A DNA stretch of 64,000 nt from an uncultured Candidatus Saccharibacteria bacterium (lineage in GTDB: Bacteria; Patescibacteriota; Minisyncoccia; Phycocordibacterales; UBA2100). The translations under genes and the position numbers were made by a program. The stretch is from positions 161,108 through 225,107 of the forward strand of contig CAYNRJ010000002.1 of NCBI GenBank assembly GCA_964399865.1. Reading direction: 5' to 3'. Shown here piece by piece: positions 3,044-53,299 of the stretch; position 1 is the first letter of the stretch; every line of letters begins with the position of its first letter. The notes beneath the pieces are model-generated. The model ran no database searches. It saw nothing but the letters and a program-made list of their open reading frames with translations, and was not told the DNA's origin.

Positions 3044-3274
3044 AGCCGATTCTTTTTGATACGTTTCTTGCAGGATTGCGCCGCAATCCTTTCAGAGAGG
3101 TGCTCTATGAAAAGGAGTTGGAACGCGCGTAAGCGCCTGAAGTCTCGTACAAGGCAGAGCGATTTGACCCACCGCACCCGAAAGGGAACGAAGCTTCCCG
3201 GCGCCCGAGAAGCGATCAGGATGACCTGGATATTGCTCGCGCTTGAAGCGAATCTCCGCGACTAGTGCGGTTCT

Positions 3275-3309
3275 GGGCCGGACCCGCGCGTCCGGCCCGC
3301 AATCTTTTT
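3275..3309 (+). terminator. rho-independent terminator (GGGCCGGAC/GTCCGGCCC stem plus T-run)
   Basis: Perfect 9-bp GC stem gggccggac-ccgcgc-gtccggccc followed by gcaatcttttt. Confidence 0.6.
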
Positions 3310-3325
3310 GATACAATGGATACCA

Positions 3326-5597: not shown

Positions 5598-6059
5598 ATG
5601 GAGATCGCAATGTACATTGATCAGGTGACTTCGACGTTTACGGCGCTCATGATGTTCATCGTGACTGCTCTTGGGTGGGTGATTGTAATTGTTTCAAGGC
5701 GAGAGGCTGTAGACGGGGCGATGTCATTTATCGGATTGCTGAGTGGAATTTTCACTGCAGTCGCCGTCAGTCAGATCTTCGTGGCGGAGTGGTTCCCTAC
5801 GCAATTCCTATGGGCGCTCGCCTCAATTTCAAATGCCCTGCTTTTTTTGTCGAGTATTCGACTCGTCATATTTCTCGATTCGAAGCGGGGAGAGAAGTAT
5901 CGCGAAGAAGTAAGGGCTCGACACGAGTTTGATCGCAGGGCGAGGGAAGGTTCCGCAGACTTCGCTCGGCGTGCGGAGGCAACAGCTCCCGCCTTCGTCG
6001 AGATGATGGCGGAAACGAGAAGTAGGCCGCTTCCGCCTGAACGCCTGAAGAAGCCGTAA
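5598..6059 (+). CDS. hypothetical membrane protein
   Basis: Three predicted TM helices at the N-terminus and a charged C-terminal tail. Confidence 0.5.
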   Translation: MEIAMYIDQVTSTFTALMMFIVTALGWVIVIVSRREAVDGAMSFIGLLSGIFTAVAVSQIFVAEWFPTQFLWALASISNALLFLSSIRLVIFLDSKRGEKYREEVRARHEFDRRAREGSADFARRAEATAPAFVEMMAETRSRPLPPERLKKP

Positions 6060-6092
6060 CCAGACCCACCGCCTTCGGCGAGGAACACTTGG

Positions 6093-6129
6093 GCCGGCGG
6101 GGACAGCCTCCCCGCCGGCTTTGATTTTT
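6093..6129 (+). terminator. rho-independent terminator
   Basis: gccggcgggg-acagcct-ccccgccggc (10-bp stem) followed by tttgattttt. Confidence 0.65.
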
Positions 6130-18045: not shown

Positions 18046-18049
18046 GCTC

Positions 18050-18078
18050 CTTCCTTAGGAGAGAAGGGAAGGTGGAAA
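18050..18078. terminator. putative bidirectional terminator between convergent rpoD and GNAT genes
   Basis: ccttcctt-aggagag-aagggaagg imperfect hairpin, flanked by A/T-rich sequence. Confidence 0.35.
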
Positions 18079-18083
18079 AGAAT

Positions 18084-18632
18084 TTATTCAACCGGAGTCT
18101 TTGGCAGGAGCATCTTTAAGGATGTTCGATGTGCGCCGCTCTTTAACGTTTCCGTGCCGCTTATGCCTGTTTCCACAAAACCCCATTTTTTATAAACGCT
18201 CCGGGCATTTTCATTGTAGTCGACGACCCATAGTGCAGTATCGTGAGTAGGGTTTAAAACAGTTTGCGCCTGCTTCCATAGTAATGCTCCAATTCCAGTA
18301 CGTTTCTTATCTGGTAGCACGTGGATGCGTGCAAGTAGATTCTCATCAGGCCCAGTTCTCACGCGACAATACCCGACAATAGTATTTCCATCTTTGGCGA
18401 CAAATTGATAAAGATTTGCTTCTGGTTTAATCAAATCTTCTCGATGTCTTTGAAGCCCCTCAGAGGTAAATTCCTCCTTGTAACGTTCCTCTATATCTTC
18501 CCTCGTAATTCCACGTTCTTCGTTCACGTATGTTGTCAAAAGACTGGCACGCATTAGCTCTTGGATGCCCGGAGCATCGCCAGCAGTTGCTGGGGTAACC
18601 GCTATTTGAGGCAATTTCTCTACGCTCTCCAT
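18084..18632 (-). CDS. GNAT family N-acetyltransferase
   Basis: VGYCRV...RTGIGALLW...VYKKWGF acetyl-CoA binding motifs. Confidence 0.8.
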   Translation of the reverse strand: MESVEKLPQIAVTPATAGDAPGIQELMRASLLTTYVNEERGITREDIEERYKEEFTSEGLQRHREDLIKPEANLYQFVAKDGNTIVGYCRVRTGPDENLLARIHVLPDKKRTGIGALLWKQAQTVLNPTHDTALWVVDYNENARSVYKKWGFVETGISGTETLKSGAHRTSLKMLLPKTPVE

Positions 18633-18675
18633 TACTCAATGCTACCGTTCGCATTGCATTTATCCAAATAAATCA

Positions 18676-18701
18676 AGCGGCCGGGCATGAGTATGTCCGG
18701 C
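18676..18701 (-). terminator. rho-independent terminator (minus strand)
   Basis: cggccgggcat-gagt-atgtccggccg stem with one mismatch. On the minus strand it is followed by cttgatttatttgg. Confidence 0.5.
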
Positions 18702-18723
18702 CGTATTTGCGTTGCGGCTCCCA

Positions 18724-19038
18724 TCAATTGAGCCGCAGTTCGTCGCCGATAAGGCGGATTTCGGCGGGTGTAATGAGCCCCACATGAGCCACTTCAACAG
18801 AGCGCACGGGAGCTACGAGTTCACGCTTCCAGAAGTCCAGAAACCGCAGCAGTTTTGGAAATCGGGGAGCGAGATCGTATTCCTGCCATAAATAAAGCTG
18901 AAGAATGCTGGGATGGTCGAGGCGACCGTAGAAAATCTTCGCGGTCGTTAGTCCATAGCCCTCCAGTTGTCGCCGAAAATCGCGAGACGAAGTCATCACC
19001 GCCTCCATATTTATTTGGAGCATTCCGAAGCTCCCCAA
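18724..19038 (-). CDS. hypothetical protein (104 aa)
   Basis: ORF with a plausible start. No family recognised. Confidence 0.4.
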   Translation of the reverse strand: MGSFGMLQINMEAVMTSSRDFRRQLEGYGLTTAKIFYGRLDHPSILQLYLWQEYDLAPRFPKLLRFLDFWKRELVAPVRSVEVAHVGLITPAEIRLIGDELRLN

Positions 19039-19080
19039 ATCGATGCTATACCTCTCCTTTGACTTTGTTAAGAGAGGGTT

Positions 19081-19416
19081 CTAGATAACCGTTGTTCGGT
19101 CAGTTGTAACGGTCGTTGTTGTCGCAACAGGGGTGGGTGTTTGTGCTGCGGCGATACGATGCTTTGCGAACTCGTCTTCTACTTGGCGTTTTTCGCGCTT
19201 GAGGTTCGAAAGATACATTTGGTCACGAATGACGCTTGGAAGAAGAATAAGAAGCGTCACAAGAGCGCCACAAAGAATGGAGCCGATGAGAACGAGGGCG
19301 AGGGAAGCGGTGATTTCCCATTGTAGAAAATTCACCGTCACAGTAGTTACGTTTTGAAGGGCAAATATGACTGACAGTCCGCCAACAATAACTCCCAGTA
19401 TCAAGGAAAATATCAT
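19081..19416 (-). CDS. LapA-like (DUF1049) membrane protein
   Basis: N-terminal TM helix with FALQNV..VTV.FL.W pattern, then a second TM, as in the LapA/YciS family. Confidence 0.55.
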   Translation of the reverse strand: MIFSLILGVIVGGLSVIFALQNVTTVTVNFLQWEITASLALVLIGSILCGALVTLLILLPSVIRDQMYLSNLKREKRQVEDEFAKHRIAAAQTPTPVATTTTVTTDRTTVI

Positions 19417-19544
19417 AAAAATATTCGGATGAGCTTTTAATGGTCAGCATTCATGAAGACGTTCCGGGACACGCGCCCCTTACCATTCTTCATGTCATAT
19501 GTGCATCAAAGCACGGAGCGTATGAACTTCAGATGAATTTTATT

Positions 19545-19585
19545 TTAAAAAACGAACGGTCGGGGAGCCGAAGCACCCCGACCGC
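19545..19585 (-). terminator. rho-independent terminator (minus strand)
   Basis: Minus-strand cggtcggggtgcttcggctccccgaccg (9-10 bp stem, UUCG-containing loop) followed by ttcgttttttaaaa. Confidence 0.65.
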
Positions 19586-19870
19586 ATCGCCTGCGTGTCA
19601 GCTAGGTCCGAAAGTCACGGAGGACGTATCCCTCCGCCGTGCCGACCGTCGGCGGCCTTTCGCTCGGAGGCATCGTGAAGATGCTCCTCGAACTCTGCTC
19701 GTTCTCCCTCGGCTTGCCGTGGAGCGAAGGCCTCCCATGGTGATCGTCAGGATTTCCACCCTGGCGATCGCTGTTCTTACGCATAGGCGTTTCTCCCTTG
19801 TTCACGACCACACCTAATTTGCGGTCGCGTGTCAATGGTACACCTTCACACTAAAATTGGCCAGGTCGTC
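19586..19870 (-). ncRNA. candidate structured small RNA (or small Pro/Arg/Gly-rich ORF) of unknown family
   Basis: GC-rich block in an otherwise ~50% GC region. It contains numerous short GC hairpins (ccgccg..cggcgg, ggagg..cctcc, cagg-guggaaau-ccug), ends in a strong terminator, and its only ORF (77 aa) starts at TTG. No RNase P, tmRNA, SRP or 6S motifs were found. Confidence 0.3.
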
Positions 19871-19873
19871 TTT

Positions 19874-19882
19874 GGTATACTC
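19874..19882 (+). promoter_or_regulatory. extended -10 TGGTATACT, leaderless start
   Basis: tggtatact ends ~6 nt before the ATG of the nuclease gene, implying a leaderless mRNA. Confidence 0.45.
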
Positions 19883-19887
19883 CGCGC

Positions 19888-20730
19888 ATGACGAATGCTC
19901 ATCCAAAAGGTAAATATCCGATCACGCACTGGAGTCATTCCTCTCTGATGTCGTTCCTCCGTAACCCTCTCGCATGGTACAAGCGCTATGTTGAAGGTAT
20001 ATATGACACGCCCTCATCTCCCGCTGGAATTATTGGCCGTGCAGGCCATGTGGCACTCCAACATTTCTATGGTGGTATCGCGAAGGATGGAGCAGTAGAG
20101 CTTGGCCTCGAGTATCTTAGAAGCGTCCCGGATTTTGAGATAAATTTTGGCGTTGCAAAGACAAAGCGCGACAAAAAGAAGAAGCGTCTCTCTATGGAGC
20201 GCGATTACTTGCAGGCAGTATCTTTTTATCTTGAGAAGCCGCCTAAGTACGATGTCCTCGGGATTGAAGTGAAAGCGATGGCAAAAGTGGAAGGGTTACC
20301 GATTCCCATCAAGGCAGTGTCGGATCTCGTGGTGCGTTCAAAAATAGATCCGAAAGCACTCGATGTTGTAGACCACAAATTCGTGGATTCTTTTAGCTCT
20401 CTCAGGGGGCAAAAAACGCTCTTCGTTATTCAAGCGCTTTTTAATTACTACACTGTAAGAGAGAAATATGGAAAGGAAGTGCGCCGATTCATTCTCCATG
20501 AATGCAAAAAACGCAGGAACGCCGACGGTAGCGCACAGATGAGGAGATACGTCATCAACTTTGATGAGAGCAGTGAAGATATTGCTGTTTTTCACCGACT
20601 TCTGAAGGATGCAACCGCCGAAATTACTCGGAAGAGGTTATACCTTCCGAATCCTTCAGATATGTTCGAAGGAGAGAATTCCTTTGATATCTATCGTCTG
20701 GGTCTCATCGAAGACGAGTCTGGCAATTGA
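19888..20730 (+). CDS. PD-(D/E)xK nuclease superfamily protein (RecB/Cas4-like fold without the Fe-S Cys cluster)
   Basis: N-terminus HWSHSSLMSFLRNPLAWYKRYVEG resembles the RecB-family nuclease N-terminal motif. VSDLVV and VVDHKF fit motifs II/III (D...D-x-K). Confidence 0.55.
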   Translation: MTNAHPKGKYPITHWSHSSLMSFLRNPLAWYKRYVEGIYDTPSSPAGIIGRAGHVALQHFYGGIAKDGAVELGLEYLRSVPDFEINFGVAKTKRDKKKKRLSMERDYLQAVSFYLEKPPKYDVLGIEVKAMAKVEGLPIPIKAVSDLVVRSKIDPKALDVVDHKFVDSFSSLRGQKTLFVIQALFNYYTVREKYGKEVRRFILHECKKRRNADGSAQMRRYVINFDESSEDIAVFHRLLKDATAEITRKRLYLPNPSDMFEGENSFDIYRLGLIEDESGN

Positions 20731-20733
20731 TTT

Positions 20734-21507
20734 TTAGAGGGCAGCGTCGATCAAGTTCTTAACCGTATTGTACTGCTGCGCGCCCTGAATTGCCGTCTGG
20801 TTCTTGCCGACAATCATGATGGAATGCGGCGTACCATTGCCTCCCGCATCGAATGCTTCGTTCAAATCGGTTTCAACTTTGCTGGCGTATTTACTTGTCG
20901 CAAGACACTCCTCAAATTGAGCGACGTCTAGCCCAAGTTCCGATGCGATGTCTGACAACTGGCCAGCGTCTGTCGTACTGCGTGGTGTTTTTTCGGCATA
21001 GTACGGCTTACCGTCAGCACCCGTAGGGACTGGGGATGGCGTGTTGTATACGCCGATGTCGAGGGAGTTGTTTGACTTGGTTGCTGCGTACACCATGTCA
21101 GTGTACTCCCAGAAGATGTCATTTCCGCCCTGTTCTGCGGCGCACTCAAGCGCTTCAGCTTCTTTTGGCGCTTTCGGATGGAGCTGAGCGAGTGGGAAAT
21201 GACGGTAGACCCACGCAACCTCGTTCGGGCTGTACTCGCTCACAATCTGCTGCAGGGTCTGATGGAAGCTCTTACAGAAAGGGCATTCAGTGTCGGAGTA
21301 CTCAACGATGACAACTTTTGCATCCTTGTCTCCGCGAATATGATCGTCGTTTTGCACAGTGCGGACTTTTTTCACCACCTCACTTCCATTTGATGTTCCT
21401 GGGGCCGCTGGTCCACCCGCATTTGAGAAATACACAGCGCCTGCGATAAGAGCACCGGCGATTACTATTGCCATTGGAATGCCCATTGAAGATCGTGATG
21501 AGTCCAT
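20734..21507 (-). CDS. membrane-anchored DsbA-family thiol:disulfide oxidoreductase
   Basis: N-terminal TM helix, CPFC active site (EYSDTECPFCKSFH) and a thioredoxin fold. Paralog of 35610..36347. Confidence 0.82.
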   Translation of the reverse strand: MDSSRSSMGIPMAIVIAGALIAGAVYFSNAGGPAAPGTSNGSEVVKKVRTVQNDDHIRGDKDAKVVIVEYSDTECPFCKSFHQTLQQIVSEYSPNEVAWVYRHFPLAQLHPKAPKEAEALECAAEQGGNDIFWEYTDMVYAATKSNNSLDIGVYNTPSPVPTGADGKPYYAEKTPRSTTDAGQLSDIASELGLDVAQFEECLATSKYASKVETDLNEAFDAGGNGTPHSIMIVGKNQTAIQGAQQYNTVKNLIDAAL

Positions 21508-29277: not shown

Positions 29278-29529
29278 ATGGCTTTCGTTGCAATTGATTG
29301 GCCCTCCAACCTGCAGACCCGCGCCGAGCGAGAAGCTCGATCAAAGGGGCTCTATGAGGCGGTTCAGGCGGATCTCGAAGCGTCCCATCCGGGGGAATAT
29401 GTCATATTCCACGCAGTGACCGGCGAACATCTGGTCGACGACAAGGCGGCGGCTCTCTACGGTAAAGCCGACGAGAAGTGGGGTAAGGACGCCCCCACCT
29501 TATGTATGAGGGTGCGTAGTCGCACCTAG
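29278..29529 (+). CDS. hypothetical protein (83 aa)
   Basis: ORF only. A GC hairpin follows it. Confidence 0.35.
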   Translation: MAFVAIDWPSNLQTRAEREARSKGLYEAVQADLEASHPGEYVIFHAVTGEHLVDDKAAALYGKADEKWGKDAPTLCMRVRSRT

Positions 29530-29685
29530 ATCTTCAGCGCAAGAGAACATGGGGGTACAGGCTTTCGCTTGCACCCCCTCTCTGTATCTACCCGAACAGT
29601 TTTTCGACGCACTTGTTATTGAGTGTCCCTCGTATTCTCCCCAAAAGGCGTTAGAATTGCGGCATATCATTTTATTACAGAACAC

Positions 29686-31353: not shown

Positions 31354-32310
31354 ATGATGAAGCTACGTGATGTATCAGTCTCAGCAGTCCTTCTCACGGG
31401 CGCGGTTGTTTTCATGTCCCAAACTCCGCTATCTCTGCCGGAGCGTACAGAAATGGAATATCGTCGTCCTCCCGTTTCTTTCACGCCGCAAAGAAATGCG
31501 ACGATACTTTTTGGTGGGGATTTGATGTTTGACCGAAGTGTCAGACAAGTGATGGAGCGCGAGGGCGCGGATTTTATTTTCTCTTGCATGACTGAGACTC
31601 TGGAAGAGCCCGATCTTGTTGTTGCAAACCTTGAAGGCCCCATCACTGAATATCCCTCTATGTCAGTCGGAAGTGTCATTGGTTCTCCGCAAAACTTTAC
31701 ATTCACATTCCCGACCGAAACCGCCTCCATGCTAGCGCGTCACAACATCTCTCTAGTGAATCTGGGAAATAATCACATACGAAATTTCGGCAGCGAAGGG
31801 GTTGTGCAGACAAAACGGTTTCTTGATGAGGCCAATGTCCGTTATTTCGGGACACCGGATGTGCCTGAGCATGAGCGAGTTGCCGAGCTAGAGATAGGAG
31901 GTATTCCATTTTCTTTTGTAAATTGGAGCGATTGGACTAGTGAGGATGTTGAGTCGGTTATAGCAGAGATCAAGAAAGCGGCTGAAAGCGATAGAGTGAC
32001 CGTTGTGTACACACATTGGGGAGAGGAATACATAGAACCGACACCACGTGTTAAAGATCTTGCGCGCGCCTTTGTAGATGCAGGGGCGGAGATAGTGATC
32101 GGATCGCACCCACATGTCGTTCAGGAACATGAGATGTACCACGGGAAGTACGTGTACTATTCCTTGGGAAATTTTGTATTTGATCAGTACTGGAATGATG
32201 AGGTCAGTACCGGACTTTTACTTAAAGTCACTTTTTCAAAAGACGGCGTGAGTGGAGTAAGGGAAATCCCGATCAAACTCGGGCGTGATCGAAGGACGTG
32301 CCTTCTATAA
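31354..32310 (+). CDS. CapA-family metallophosphatase (poly-gamma-glutamate capsule synthesis-like)
   Basis: ILFGGDLMFDR, NLEGPIT, LVNLGNNH and VIGSHPHVVQ motifs of the PGA_cap family. Confidence 0.75.
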   Translation: MMKLRDVSVSAVLLTGAVVFMSQTPLSLPERTEMEYRRPPVSFTPQRNATILFGGDLMFDRSVRQVMEREGADFIFSCMTETLEEPDLVVANLEGPITEYPSMSVGSVIGSPQNFTFTFPTETASMLARHNISLVNLGNNHIRNFGSEGVVQTKRFLDEANVRYFGTPDVPEHERVAELEIGGIPFSFVNWSDWTSEDVESVIAEIKKAAESDRVTVVYTHWGEEYIEPTPRVKDLARAFVDAGAEIVIGSHPHVVQEHEMYHGKYVYYSLGNFVFDQYWNDEVSTGLLLKVTFSKDGVSGVREIPIKLGRDRRTCLL

Positions 32311-33450
32311 TTCTCCGTTTTTTATTGCCCTGCGGACTTTTGCGGCGAGCGCATTGAAATAATGCACGTTGTGCATGGTCGCCAATTTCATGCCGCTTAA
32401 TTCTCGCGCGCGGAGTAGATGTGCGATGTAACTGCGTGAGTATGATGCACACACGTCGCACGTACACGTTTTATCAATCGCGCCCGTGTCTTTAAGAAAT
32501 GTCGGTTTTCGGAGGTCCAGTCTTCCCTTTGAAGTAAAAAGTATTCCACGGCGTGCGTAATGCGTGGGCGCTATGCAATCAAACGTATCCATCCCGCTCT
32601 CAGCGAGAATTTCGAAATCCTCCGGGTGTCCGATACCAAGCGCATGACGTGGTTTTCCTTCTGGTAATATGTCTACCGCCCACCCCATTAACTTTCCCAT
32701 TCCGAGCTTGTCGTAGCCGTATTCACCGCCAATTGCAAAACCTTCAAAAGGAAGCGCTCCGATCACCGTCGCGCTTTCTTCTCGTAGGTCGCGATGCGAT
32801 CCTCCTTGTACTATGCCGTACATTGCTTGCGCATTGGACCGTCTTGCGTCGAGGGACTTCTTTGCCCAACGATGCGTTTTTTCAAGAGAGGTGTGCATGT
32901 ATTCTTTTGTTGCAGAAGGGGACGGGCATTCATCGAATGCGAGGATGATGTCGGCGCCGAGCGCTTCCTGAATGTGTATGGATTCCTTTGGGCCAAGAAA
33001 GAGTTCTTTGCCATCGATAGGGGAGCGGAAATGAACACCATCATCAGTGATCTTTAAATGGACTGGCTGCATATCCCTCTCCACCATTTTTCCGGTCGGC
33101 GTCTTAAGGATCTTCCCGATGCCGTGGTCTTTTCCAAACCCAAGGCTATATACCTGGAAACCGCCGGAATCTGTCATCATCGGCTTTTTCCAATTCATAA
33201 ACTTATGCAGCCCACCGGCTTTTTTGACAATTTTTTCGCCAGGCGCGAGGTGTAAGTGATACGTATTCGCAATGAGCGCAGGTGTACCTGCTTCTTCAAC
33301 TTCTTCGCTATCGAGCATCCGTACAGTGGCATGTGTAGCGACAGTAATGAATGCGGGTGTTTCGATCTCGCCGTGAGGCGTAGAAATAACGCCAAGTCGC
33401 GCCCGACTCTTCTTCGATTTCTTCAATATCTTGAACCCAAACGATTTCAT
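32305..33450 (-). CDS. tgt: queuine tRNA-ribosyltransferase
   Basis: MMTDSGGFQVYSL catalytic motif and zinc site CTCDVC...H. Confidence 0.92.
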   Translation of the reverse strand: MKSFGFKILKKSKKSRARLGVISTPHGEIETPAFITVATHATVRMLDSEEVEEAGTPALIANTYHLHLAPGEKIVKKAGGLHKFMNWKKPMMTDSGGFQVYSLGFGKDHGIGKILKTPTGKMVERDMQPVHLKITDDGVHFRSPIDGKELFLGPKESIHIQEALGADIILAFDECPSPSATKEYMHTSLEKTHRWAKKSLDARRSNAQAMYGIVQGGSHRDLREESATVIGALPFEGFAIGGEYGYDKLGMGKLMGWAVDILPEGKPRHALGIGHPEDFEILAESGMDTFDCIAPTHYARRGILFTSKGRLDLRKPTFLKDTGAIDKTCTCDVCASYSRSYIAHLLRARELSGMKLATMHNVHYFNALAAKVRRAIKNGEL

Positions 33451-46567: not shown

Positions 46568-46780
46568 TTAAAAATCCATCAAGTCGTTCACTCTCAGACC
46601 GAGCGCTCGTGCGATCTTCTGCATATTTGTGAGAGTAATATTTTTCTCAGCCCGCTCAATCATTCCGATGTACGTTCTGTGGACGCCTGCAAGCTGGCCT
46701 AGTCGTTCTTGGGAAATACCCTTTTTGTCGCGCTCCTCGCGCACTCGCTTGCCAAATTTTTGGAGAATTTGCCTGTTCAT
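46568..46780 (-). CDS. XRE-family helix-turn-helix transcriptional regulator
   Basis: ISQERLGQLAGVHRTYIGMIERAEKNITL matches the Cro/CI-type HTH. Confidence 0.85.
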   Translation of the reverse strand: MNRQILQKFGKRVREERDKKGISQERLGQLAGVHRTYIGMIERAEKNITLTNMQKIARALGLRVNDLMDF

Positions 46781-46836
46781 ACCTACACAAACAAGTGTAG
46801 GTAGTCGCTAACTTTGGTTCTACATACTATAGTTAG

Positions 46837-46921
46837 CGCACTGAATACGCACTAAGTCCAGACTGTTGGCAACTCCTCCCAGGCCCCTTCGCAAGGTCCA
46901 TAATGTATGCTAACTATAGTA
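46837..46921. promoter_or_regulatory. pair of palindromic operator-like sites in a divergent promoter region
   Basis: catactatagttagc (46837-51) and its exact reverse complement gctaactatagtatg (46907-21) each contain the palindrome AACTATAGTT. An additional perfect hairpin cctacac-aaacaa-gtgtagg lies at 46786-46805. Confidence 0.5.
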
Positions 46922-46952
46922 TGCATTACCCGATAACACATTTATTAGCTTT

Positions 46953-47498
46953 ATGAGCCAAAAACGTTGGATAGTAGCATTGGCAATTGCAGTCCTTCTG
47001 GCAGCCTCTGGCGGCGCATACTACTGGTACACCGGCACTCCGCAGTACGCCCTTGGGCAAGTCAAGAAAGCGTACGAGACGCACGATACGGACCTTGCCT
47101 TCAAGTACATAGACTTCGATTCGGTATTTGACAGCTTCTGGTCTGACATCCAAAAGCAGTTAACCGAAGAGGCTACGAAAACCGAGAACGAATGGGAGGC
47201 ATTCGGGACGATGATCGGGCAAGGCATCGTTCAGAACATGAAACCAATGCTCAAGGATCGGCTTAAAACAGAATTGACCGATGCGGTCCGAAATACTGAG
47301 CAGGTCGAAGATAACAATCTGTCAAAGTTGGCAGAGACGTATTCACTCAGGCAGGAAGGCAAAATTGCCATTGTCGAAGGCGATAGCCCCCTGAAGCTGC
47401 ACCTTGAAAAGCGAAGTGAGCATCATTGGCGCGTTGTTGCGATAAAGGGCTGGACTGCGGACATGGGTTCGGAAGCGGCAACAACAACCGAACAGTAA
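46953..47498 (+). CDS. hypothetical membrane-anchored protein
   Basis: Signal anchor and an acidic soluble domain. Confidence 0.45.
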   Translation: MSQKRWIVALAIAVLLAASGGAYYWYTGTPQYALGQVKKAYETHDTDLAFKYIDFDSVFDSFWSDIQKQLTEEATKTENEWEAFGTMIGQGIVQNMKPMLKDRLKTELTDAVRNTEQVEDNNLSKLAETYSLRQEGKIAIVEGDSPLKLHLEKRSEHHWRVVAIKGWTADMGSEAATTTEQ

Positions 47499-52477: not shown

Positions 52478-53299
52478 TCAGTTCTCTTCAGAATCTTCTT
52501 CTTGGATCGCATTATCAAGCAATCTACCTCCTGAGCGATGGAGCTCACCACCACCGCGCAGAATGGATTCTGATCTGAGCTTGCACTTGAGCTGGTAGCC
52601 GCAGTGGGGGTCGTAGAAATTGAAGGGACTGTCGGCAATCCCGAGCGCTGACGAAAGTTTTTGTGCTAGTGCCTGTTTGTTTTTCTGGAGTGCTGCTTTT
52701 GTTATGTTAAGTGAGCGGGACAAATTCTCCGTCGTCGGTACCATCATCTTTTTCTGCTCTGCGATAATGGATAGCTGGAGGAGAAGACCCCATTGCTTAT
52801 CTGGTTTACGGTCGCGCGTATTCTTGCGCGCAAAGCCGAGATCCGAATAATCGCAGTCTCGCATTCGGTTTCCTTTATAGAAGACCGAGAGCGTATAGAG
52901 ATCCTTGAAGCGTAATTCAAGATGTTCCCATCGTGTATCACTCGGCAACTCAACTACAGCGCGTTTCGATTCGATAATTTCAAGATCTCGAGGGATTGGT
53001 GATACTGCCCATTCTGGCCGGGAAGGAATAGTAAGTGGTGTGGCAGCTGCTTTCATGGCGATGTCGAACCGCGACATATCTTCCACGGCAGCCTGCATCA
53101 TTCGGTGAAATCGCGTTAGCGATTCCAATGCAGGAGCCATGGATAGCATCATGCGTTTTTGAGATTCGTGCAAATTAGCTAGTGTTTGTGCATATGGCGC
53201 TATCATACGGGCGGCATACGTGGCATATCGTTCAGCATCGTGCTGAGCGTTTGTGAACAGTGAAAGTGTATTGGATCTGAGCACGGGGAAGGTCGACAT
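52478..53299 (-). CDS. hypothetical protein (273 aa), divergent from the repressor gene
   Basis: ORF only. No family recognised. Confidence 0.45.
   Translation of the reverse strand: MSTFPVLRSNTLSLFTNAQHDAERYATYAARMIAPYAQTLANLHESQKRMMLSMAPALESLTRFHRMMQAAVEDMSRFDIAMKAAATPLTIPSRPEWAVSPIPRDLEIIESKRAVVELPSDTRWEHLELRFKDLYTLSVFYKGNRMRDCDYSDLGFARKNTRDRKPDKQWGLLLQLSIIAEQKKMMVPTTENLSRSLNITKAALQKNKQALAQKLSSALGIADSPFNFYDPHCGYQLKCKLRSESILRGGGELHRSGGRLLDNAIQEEDSEEN

Follow-up and report, generated by a model that had tools for sequence, protein, structure and literature searches.

Introduction

Stand-alone bacterial small RNAs (sRNAs) carry their own promoter and Rho-independent terminator, and the dual-function representatives of this group, such as SgrS/SgrT, RNAIII/hld and SR1/SR1P, encode a peptide as well. 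Transcription-attenuation leaders, in turn, comprise riboswitches, T-box leaders and leader-peptide attenuators such as trpL and hisL. For the small RNAs of CPR bacteria, a literature search returned nothing relevant.

Here we analyse a GC-rich block located beside a PD-(D/E)XK nuclease gene within a 64,000-nt stretch of DNA from a Candidatus Kaiserbacteria (Paceibacterota/CPR) genome, referred to below in its full length as the window. An initial annotation had presented the block as a densely structured minus-strand transcript of about 300 nt with its own terminator and without a convincing open reading frame (ORF), that is, as an unclassified non-coding RNA or a cis-regulatory leader. We tentatively favour a different reading, to which we assign a probability of about 0.4, where the block, a small minus-strand unit that is specific to the strain and has a terminator of its own, is the mRNA for a small, hydrophilic orphan protein.

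Results

Genomic context and base composition

The block is held in a gap of 471 nt flanked by two divergent genes, and given this orientation of the LapA and nuclease genes, the gap is a divergent promoter region. The flanking genes are as follows:

19081-19416, minus strand: LapA_dom gene (Pfam E=1.6e-15)
19888-20730, plus strand: PD-(D/E)XK nuclease gene (E=1.4e-10; 280-aa product)

These Pfam matches confirm both flanks, in agreement with the position that the initial annotation gave to the block, between a LapA-like and a nuclease gene. The 280-aa nuclease protein has more than 100 relatives with identities of 72-81%, and those whose source is named are labelled Kaiserbacteria, Paceibacterota or Parcubacteria. 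Its gene looks leaderless, as had been proposed, given that TGGTATACT (19873-19881) is placed only 6 nt ahead of the ATG. The same arrangement is common to many genes in the window, where start signals are of two kinds: TGnTAnnnT followed by an ATG in many genes and GGAG-type Shine-Dalgarno (SD) sites in others.

The GC content reaches 62.5% over positions 19560-19810, compared to a window mean of 48.7% (sd 4.7%, 250-nt windows), and the 250-nt segment starting at 19551 is among those that tie for the highest value in the 64 kb. The block is clearly GC-richer than its surroundings, as first noted, with a content near that of the tRNAs of the window (0.54-0.65). Its sense (minus) strand is purine-rich, with an AT skew of +0.23 and a GC skew of +0.09, the same sign as in the genes of this genome (mean AT skew +0.09, mean GC skew +0.05). 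Two more GC-rich small units that combine an ORF with hairpins are found within the window, at 3107-3265 and 29278-29529.

Terminator and promoter candidates

On the minus strand, the block ends in a predicted terminator and begins near two promoter-like sites:

19547-19589, minus strand: intrinsic terminator, with a stem-loop at 19589-19553 followed by U6 at 19552-19547
19807-19863, minus strand: two overlapping weak promoter-like sites, read from the sequence

The terminator stem-loop reads GGUCGGGG-U-GC / UUCG / GC-U-CCCCGACC on the minus strand, with 12-15 pairs, one U.U mismatch and a UUCG tetraloop. Its predicted energy of -25.8 kcal/mol places it second among the 21 T-run-associated hairpins of the 64-kb window, which substantiates the strong minus-strand terminator with UUCG loop and U-run described previously; a generic terminator scanner missed it (19589-19547) because of the internal mismatch in the stem. 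A stable GC-rich stem-loop with a U-tract directly behind it is the hallmark of an intrinsic terminator, and termination activity is predicted on this ground. Database searches with this element returned solely chance matches to other terminator hairpins.

Located inside a divergent region, a strong terminator of the minus strand implies a transcript of at most about 300 nt that would start between the nuclease gene and the terminator. A minus-strand transcription unit separate from its neighbours is likely, considering the placement of the terminator, the purine skew and the slightly better folding of the minus strand, so that the proposal of a minus-strand transcript of its own, about 300 nt long, is retained.

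The candidate promoters for this unit are TGGCCA (19863-19858)-17-TACCAT (19840-19835) and TTGACA (19835-19830)-17-TGTGGT (19812-19807), both on the minus strand. Neither reaches the 9/12 threshold of the scanner, their hexamers being poor, and neither matches the TGnTAnnnT extended -10 element of the clear promoters of this genome. Every functional reading of the block is weakened by the lack of a good promoter.

The terminator could also belong to the neighbours. The dsbA-like gene (20734-21507, minus strand) converges on the nuclease gene, which ends at 20730 on the plus strand; the 3 nt that separate the two genes contain no terminator, and the next minus-strand terminator downstream of the dsbA-like gene is precisely the one at 19589-19547. 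It might then stop antisense read-through from dsbA/hsp20 across the nuclease gene and insulate the LapA operon, the remainder of the block being filler. We consider this highly improbable: polymerases would have to read on for 1.2 kb along the antisense strand of an expressed gene, the 250 GC-rich nucleotides, the SD-ATG-ORF arrangement and the excess folding described below would be left unexplained, and the block is missing from relatives with the same convergent arrangement.

Open reading frames

The block has three ORFs of at least 50 aa, two on the minus strand (77 and 53 aa) and one on the plus strand (125 aa). The initial annotation had treated the 77-aa frame as the only one, overlooking both a Shine-Dalgarno sequence and an internal ATG at 19784. 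The frames discussed here are:

19602-19835, minus strand: 77-codon ORF with a TTG start; the frame is open from 19850, after a stop at 19853-19851
19602-19784, minus strand: 60-codon alternative reading, from the internal ATG at 19784-19782 to the UAG stop at 19604-19602
19440-19817, plus strand: 125-aa ORF annotated by public gene callers

The product of the 77-codon ORF is hydrophilic and of low complexity, rich in Pro, Arg, Gly and Ser. Within the frame, the sequence AAGGGAGA (19799-19792) contains GGGAG at 19797-19793, 8 nt upstream of the internal ATG, and the UAG stop that both readings share is located 12 nt ahead of the terminator stem. The 60-codon reading displays all the elements of a small gene, namely a ribosome binding site, a start codon and an open frame that closes before the terminator. 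In dinucleotide shuffles of the segment from the nuclease promoter to the terminator, a sense ORF of at least 77 codons is obtained with P=0.026; for an ORF of 50 codons or more that starts at an SD-led ATG and closes ahead of the terminator, P=0.022.

The codon log-odds of the 77-codon frame, 0.09-0.12 per codon, are the best of the six frames. Among true frames they reach just the 6th percentile, and among off-frames, which are non-coding, the top 1%. The GC content at codon positions 1/2/3 is 0.58/0.50/0.71, compared to an average GC3 of 0.51 for the genes of the genome. Considering an SD-ATG-60-codon-stop-terminator arrangement with a chance of about 0.02-0.03 and a codon score within the top 1% of non-coding frames, the statement that the block holds no convincing ORF was too strong. 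A single-sequence AlphaFold2 model of the 60-aa peptide showed no secondary structure (pLDDT 64, pTM 0.14), a result that is uninformative for an orphan. The predicted tryptic peptides of the ORF include QGGNPDDHHGRPSLHGKPR and SIFTMPPSERPPTVGTAEGYVLR, together with LGVVVNK, which is specific to the TTG start.

The 125-aa frame of the plus strand has, as judged from the coordinates, exactly the phase of an antisense shadow of the 77-aa ORF. It is called as a gene on the loci L081 and L086-L088, its 90% cluster has a single member, and neither Pfam nor NCBIfam gave a match to it. Its codon score of -0.08 is below that of 99% of true frames. The annotation of this frame as a gene is probably spurious, in which case automatic pipelines have assigned a 125-aa gene of this genome to the wrong strand.

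Predicted RNA structure

The folding z-scores of the minus strand shift with the boundaries chosen, from -2.9 to -4.6: the value is -4.4 for the full unit with its terminator, -3.95 for 19826-19546, -2.9 for 19600-19869, where the terminator is left out, and -4.6 for the ORF segment, 19602-19835. Most 200-nt windows over 19420-19860 give values of -2.2 to -3.5 on both strands, the plus strand of the block being nearly as negative as the minus strand, which folds slightly better. Across the genome background, 200-nt windows have a mean z of -0.34 (sd 1.27, minimum -4.64) and 4% of them are at or below -3. The block is unusually foldable but not exceptional, within the top 3-4% of the genome background. 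In view of these boundary-dependent values and of this background, the dense structure claimed by the initial annotation is overstated. The further claim that the strand is packed with short perfect hairpins does not hold, given that perfect Watson-Crick hairpins of at least 5 bp number 3 distinct ones, compared to 1.85 +/- 1.6 in dinucleotide shuffles (P=0.15).

Two elements stand out in the predicted fold:

19803-19829, minus strand: 5' stem-loop, present in both the MFE and the centroid structures
19597-19775, minus strand: predicted multi-branched central fold with 59 base pairs and 4 branch points, wholly within the ORF

The 5' stem-loop reads CGCGACCGC / AAAUUAG / GUGUGGUCGUG and has around 10 pairs, 2 of them G.U. 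It would form the 5' end of the transcript if TGGCCA-17-TACCAT is used as promoter, and it would lie inside the promoter if TTGACA-17-TGTGGT is used. The central fold is a single-sequence prediction, and a covariance model of it, run against the window and 88 loci, recovered only itself, the next best matches having E=1.3 and 2.8. The ORF segment is more structured than bona fide small coding genes: ORF52, ORF83, LapA, Usg and four small genes of the VVVTGSG type have fold z-scores between +0.5 and -1.9, no better than shuffled sequences, compared to -4.6 here. This excess is the best remaining argument that points towards a role at the RNA level.

Searches against Rfam 15, with RNase P, tmRNA, SRP and 6S among its families, detected at gathering thresholds 2 tRNAs in the whole window and nothing at the block. 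At E<=10, the region 19300-20000 gave only chance matches to terminator hairpins, for instance BASRCII26 with 21 bits compared to a gathering score of 218, and riboswitch, T-box and leader families were without a match at the block even at this level. ARAGORN detected no tmRNA or tRNA there. These results are in agreement with the initial annotation, which had recognized no RNase P, tmRNA, SRP or 6S signature, and the Rfam comparison it proposed as a check has now given no significant family match to the block.

An sRNA of about 255-285 nt, lineage-specific and non-coding, with its own promoter and terminator and with an ORF that is a by-product of GC-rich, stop-poor sequence, would account for several of these observations. 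The strong terminator, the tRNA-like GC content (62.5%, compared to 48.7% for the window), the z-scores of -4.4, -3.95 and -4.6, beyond those of verified small coding genes, and a peptide with neither homologue nor predicted fold all speak for it. Nevertheless, we regard it as rather unlikely, considering that the structure signal, almost equally strong on the plus strand, ranks no higher than the top 3-4% of the background, that perfect hairpins are at chance level, that Rfam gave no match, that no homologue in sequence or structure, and hence no covariation, was obtained among the 88 loci, that the SD-ATG-ORF-stop geometry has a chance of about 0.02-0.03, and that a clear promoter is absent. 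With this structure signal, hairpins at chance level and no homologue found, the densely structured non-coding RNA first proposed is weakly supported.

Distribution of the block and search for homologues

The comparison set consisted of 80 GTDB species-level loci, fetched via the nuclease gene, together with about 8 additional, distinct assemblies from the closest relatives. No copy of the block was detected in these 80 loci and about 8 assemblies by blastn, nhmmer or tblastn. It is carried solely by four contigs of the same organism, 100% identical and from two studies (Logan assemblies SRR14271372, SRR14271373, SRR13076587 and SRR13076588), and this identity across four samples shows clonality alone.

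The 77/60-aa peptide has no match in Pfam or NCBIfam and no word-sharing candidate among 5.8 billion protein clusters, and phmmer against 1.84 billion representatives retrieved exclusively translated tandem (satellite) repeats. Phage and plasmid DNA collections gave just terminator-hairpin chance matches to the block, and a viral scan for the 77-codon ORF was negative. A metagenome scan for the same ORF produced one match, L085, with 24/28 nt at the SD and ATG and 49% identity over 34 aa, in-frame and colinear with the start of an unrelated high-GC gene. Beyond the anchor, the match has P of about 4e-4, which becomes about 0.1 across the 270 anchors; failing this correction, it was rejected as a homologue and taken as marginal or due to chance. 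The L085 protein has no relatives or family of its own.

Mobile and repeat elements were considered as well. A TIGR-Tas array does not fit the block, which has no tandem repeats, and a miniature mobile element (MITE or repeat) was rejected, the block being single-copy in the window and its ends forming no inverted repeats. Direct repeats on its flanks (8 nt, TGACACGC; 11/15 nt) do not exceed what chance would give, partly by estimate. The block is outside every Rfam family, the small-protein families described below and the mobile-element classes, and has no known relatives.

The hypervariable slot beside the nuclease gene

In the relatives, the order of genes is rpoD, a variable interval, the nuclease gene and dsbA/hsp20. 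The interval between rpoD and the nuclease gene is hypervariable, ranging from 33 nt to more than 2 kb across 80 species, so lineage-specific cargo is to be expected there. The cargo genes of the window (GNAT, Usg-like and LapA-like) recur in some relatives but the GC-rich block does not. At L002, the distance between the LapA and nuclease genes is 170 nt, and the nuclease promoter is the sole part that aligns; the window therefore carries about 300 extra nt.

Many relatives have, immediately upstream of the nuclease gene and divergent from it, a small gene with promoter, SD and terminator. One family of such genes, at L020, L022, L078 and L084, encodes hydrophilic proteins of 47-54 aa ending in VVVTGSGKVLRD, and a second, at L009, L044 and L065, encodes very basic MAKRASQDIKNKK... 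proteins of 39-41 aa; nothing matching either family was found in Pfam. Elsewhere the slot holds small membrane proteins, as at L094, and at L083 an SD-led ORF of 35 codons is followed by hairpins and a terminator.

By eye, the window ORF bears a likeness to the VVVTGSGKVLRD family (MTRDRK...ETPMRK compared to MSDRKAETPRK of L078, and GYVLRD compared to GKVLRD). Membership was rejected, with HMM scores of 1.4-2.1 bits and a rank of 156th or lower among 12,376 ORFs. A family-summed permutation test gave P=0.13, and the DNA local-alignment score is no outlier among 82 loci. The C-terminal motif of the family is VVVTGSGxVLxD, and the window ORF has PTVGTAEGYVLRD, without the TGSG core. The small genes of the slot serve as context for the block, not as evidence of homology.

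Given a slot of this kind, the block might be a relic, that is, foreign or rearranged DNA in a recombination-prone place, for instance a 3' gene end that came, terminator included, from a relative of higher GC content; this terminator may have stayed active, but nothing would be made on purpose. Several features are compatible with such an origin, including the hypervariability itself, the absence of the block from all relatives checked with the roughly 300 extra nt relative to L002, a GC content and a GC3 (0.71) unlike those of the host genome, a frame that is open from the stop at 19853-19851 with no need of a start codon, the missing good promoter and the marginal colinear, in-frame similarity to the start of the high-GC gene at L085. 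Against it, CPR genomes are compact and a non-coding gap of 470 nt is of unusual length for this window, the proper spacing of SD and ATG would have arisen by coincidence, four independent samples share an identical sequence (which, as stated, demonstrates clonality), and a donor sequence appears in none of the collections searched. We consider a relic unlikely.

The block might instead act in cis, as the leader of the LapA-Usg-GNAT operon. Transcription would then begin upstream of the block and be attenuated at the terminator, under the control of either an RNA switch or ribosomes translating the 60-codon upstream ORF. The LapA ATG follows the terminator at a distance of 130 nt on the same strand, the stop of the upstream ORF is 12 nt before the terminator stem, 8-nt complementarities connect 19827-19820 and 19649-19642 to the terminator arms, and in the spacer that follows the terminator LapA lacks a clear promoter of the kind usual in this genome. 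This spacer, however, has its own hairpins and a promoter-like site, TTAAAA-17-TATGAT, the 8-nt complementarities occur at chance number (about 0.8 per 330 nt, an estimate), riboswitch, T-box and leader families are without a match at E<=10, and no regulatory amino acid forms a run in the putative leader peptide. The idea is weakened mainly by the LapA homologues of L002, L007, L048, L065 and L091, which have no similar upstream sequence or structure, the gap at L002 being just 170 nt. Disfavoured by these five relatives, the cis-regulatory leader suggested by the initial annotation is an unlikely identity for the block, and somewhat more so than a relic.

Discussion

Two opposing signals of similar strength are found in the block: an ORF geometry with a chance of about 2-3% and a folding within the top 3-4% of the background. 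The balance is shifted modestly to a small-protein mRNA by the codon usage, the strand skew and the habit of the slot of harbouring small protein genes, which makes this reading somewhat more likely than an sRNA. There is also a list of features that count against coding, and it includes the lack of a peptide homologue and of a predicted fold, the low complexity, a codon score at the 6th percentile and an atypical GC3. To these are added the poor promoters, the choice of the antisense ORF by public gene callers and the z of -4.6.

The base composition, the geometry of ORF, SD and stop, the terminator, the lack of homologues in the collections searched and the variable nature of the slot are direct observations; we infer the promoter, transcription, translation and any function of the peptide from the sequence. 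In the small-protein mRNA that we tentatively prefer, a weak promoter at around 19863-19807 would give a transcript of roughly 255-285 nt, ribosomes would bind at GGGAG (19797-19793) and start at the AUG at 19784 (60 aa) or possibly at the UUG at 19835 (77 aa), and translation would end at the UAG at 19604-19602. RNA polymerase would then be released at the UUCG hairpin and U6 (19589-19547), ahead of the LapA-like gene.

A more elaborate alternative is a new structured or dual-function RNA of one Kaiserbacteria lineage, where the 60-77-codon ORF and the multi-branched fold are both in use. We hold this to be improbable, about as much as a relic. If true, it would count among the first regulatory RNAs of the stand-alone kind to be proposed in a CPR bacterium, and it would adjoin a universally conserved PD-(D/E)XK nuclease gene.

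As a single-lineage orphan, the block matters little on its own. Should transcriptomic or proteomic data for the organism become available, it would make a clean test case for deciding between an sRNA and an orphan small protein in a CPR genome. Of more use is the by-product that, in Kaiserbacteria, the position directly upstream of the conserved nuclease gene is a hypervariable slot, repeatedly occupied by small genes with terminators of their own.

Compared with the known systems, the block resembles transcription-attenuation leaders in having a same-strand terminator upstream of an operon and an upstream ORF that ends just before this terminator. Unlike them, it has no Rfam leader match, no conserved LapA leader and no regulatory codon run, and its antiterminator alternative is without statistical meaning. 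With stand-alone sRNAs, the dual-function ones included, it shares a length of about 250-300 nt, an intergenic location, a 3' GC-rich hairpin with a U-tract, an above-average predicted structure, a lineage-restricted distribution and a possible embedded small ORF. It differs from sRNAs in that the ORF fills almost the whole predicted transcript and in that there is no conservation even in the nearest relatives available.

Among orphan small protein genes (ORFans/sORFs) of variable genomic slots, the nearest to the block are the small genes of this slot, of the VVVTGSGKVLRD and MAKRASQDIKNKK families, which have the same position, the same divergent orientation and a similar size, and their products share with that of the block ORF a hydrophilic, largely disordered-looking character, an SD-led start and an own intrinsic terminator. 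The block, in contrast, shows no significant similarity to either family and has a weaker promoter, a higher GC content relative to its genome and a much more stable predicted RNA fold. The block is of a common type, either a small gene or an sRNA, confined to one lineage, equipped with an intrinsic terminator and placed in a variable slot.

Small GC-rich units elsewhere in the window

Two further small units of high GC content were found in the window.

3051-3314, plus strand: a second small unit of high GC content (57%), with the 2357-3043 gene on one side and the smc-like gene on the other
29278-29529, plus strand: 83-aa ORF (MAFVAIDWPSNLQTRAEREARSKG...) in a GC-rich (59%) intergenic stretch, seemingly absent from the annotation

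The unit at 3051-3314 carries a Shine-Dalgarno (SD) sequence (GAGG) and an ATG at 3107 that opens a basic 52-codon ORF (MKRSWNARKRLKSR...), and it ends in a strong terminator hairpin with a T-run (3274-3299, -24.4 kcal/mol), which ranks third by strength within the window. The codon score of this ORF is marginal (0.03), and searches of Pfam and NCBIfam gave no match. The true ATG of the smc-like gene appears to lie at about 3327. A direct repeat of 12 nt without mismatch, TCTTTTTGATAC, flanks the unit (copies at 3051 and 3303; chance expectation 0.05) and duplicates the downstream TGATACAAT promoter; judging from this flanking promoter repeat, the unit looks like an insertion accompanied by duplication. 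The 83-aa ORF has an SD of GAGGAG, a good codon score (0.21) and a hairpin, GGGGGTACAGGCTTTCGCTTGCACCCCC, on its 3' side at about 29552-29577. It belongs to no Pfam or NCBIfam family and is probably a real small gene.

Strong hairpins and a palindromic intergenic region

Strong secondary structure was also observed at other positions, as listed here together with an adjoining ORF.

6092-6120, plus strand: hairpin GGCCGGCGGGGACAGCCTCCCCGCCGGC with a T-run, 3' of the 5598-6059 ORF
18677-18704, plus strand: 12-bp hairpin GCGGCCGGGCAT/GAGT/ATGTCCGGCCGT, between the GNAT and Usg-like genes
46640-46955, plus strand: AT-richer intergenic region upstream of the gene at 46953
46568-46780, minus strand: 70-aa ORF adjoining the palindromic region 46640-46955

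The 48-nt stretch containing the 6092-6120 hairpin is the strongest of the window, at -30.3 kcal/mol. The strongest folding signal seen in this analysis (z=-5.15) belongs to 46640-46955, which contains long perfect palindromes (ACCTACACAAACAAGTGTAGGT) together with the repeats GCTAACTATAGTA and TACTATAGTTAGC. This region had no match in Rfam, and it looks like a divergent promoter carrying DNA operator palindromes rather than an RNA.

Transcription signals and gene arrangement

GGAG-type Shine-Dalgarno sites are present in a minority of the window genes. In many genes the ATG is preceded, at a distance of 5-9 nt, by the end of an extended -10 box (TGnTAnnnT); examples are those at 19888, 25429, 30254, 32305-33450 (minus strand), 40435, 52478-53299 (minus strand), 53354 and 59284. 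This arrangement suggests that leaderless mRNAs are widespread in this genome. At 20730-20734 the plus-strand nuclease gene meets the minus-strand dsbA-like gene tail to tail, with a gap of only 3 nt and no terminator between them; each transcript would run antisense into the other gene.

A 130-nt spacer separates the terminator of the GC-rich block from the ATG of the LapA-like gene and has competing pairings of its own at 19439-19494 (minus strand): CAUGAAGA/UCUUCAUG, perfect over 8 bp, and AAUGGU/ACCAUU, whose arrangement makes their joint formation as nested helices impossible. These pairings may be due to chance.

Small genes in the rpoD-nuclease interval

Compared with 80 related loci, the rpoD-nuclease interval (18046-19887) is hypervariable across species, ranging from 33 nt to >2 kb, and its cargo differs by genome (GNAT, Usg-like, LapA-like, small ORFs, a 280-aa protein and others). 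On a high-GC metagenome contig (L085, 1336-1446), AACAAGGGAGAGACACCCATGCGCAAGA matches 24/28 nt of the SD and ATG region of the block, and 70 nt beyond it a colinear, in-frame 24/32-nt match falls where an unrelated orphan ORF (MRKTIGRNRRRGSDPVSFRKRPSINCEPLENRLMMA...) begins; once corrected for 270 anchors, the E-value is about 0.1.

Two small genes recur in this slot. A very basic protein of 39-41 aa, MAKRASQDIKNKKSRSRKTKKRLAAKRAMLAARAAKKRR, without a match in Pfam, is encoded on the minus strand in three of the loci (L009, L044 and L065), some 70-100 nt 5' of the nuclease gene. The other encodes a conserved family of small hydrophilic proteins (47-54 aa, C-terminus hVVVTGSGkVLrD), also unmatched in Pfam, present in four Kaiserbacteria-like genomes.

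L020, 2777-3016, minus strand: hVVVTGSGkVLrD family gene
L022, 2702-2938, minus strand: hVVVTGSGkVLrD family gene
L078, 2787-3080, minus strand: hVVVTGSGkVLrD family gene
L084, 2763-2954, minus strand: hVVVTGSGkVLrD family gene

These genes lie directly 5' of the nuclease gene and divergent from it, and all four copies possess an SD and a terminator in addition to a TTGACT promoter.
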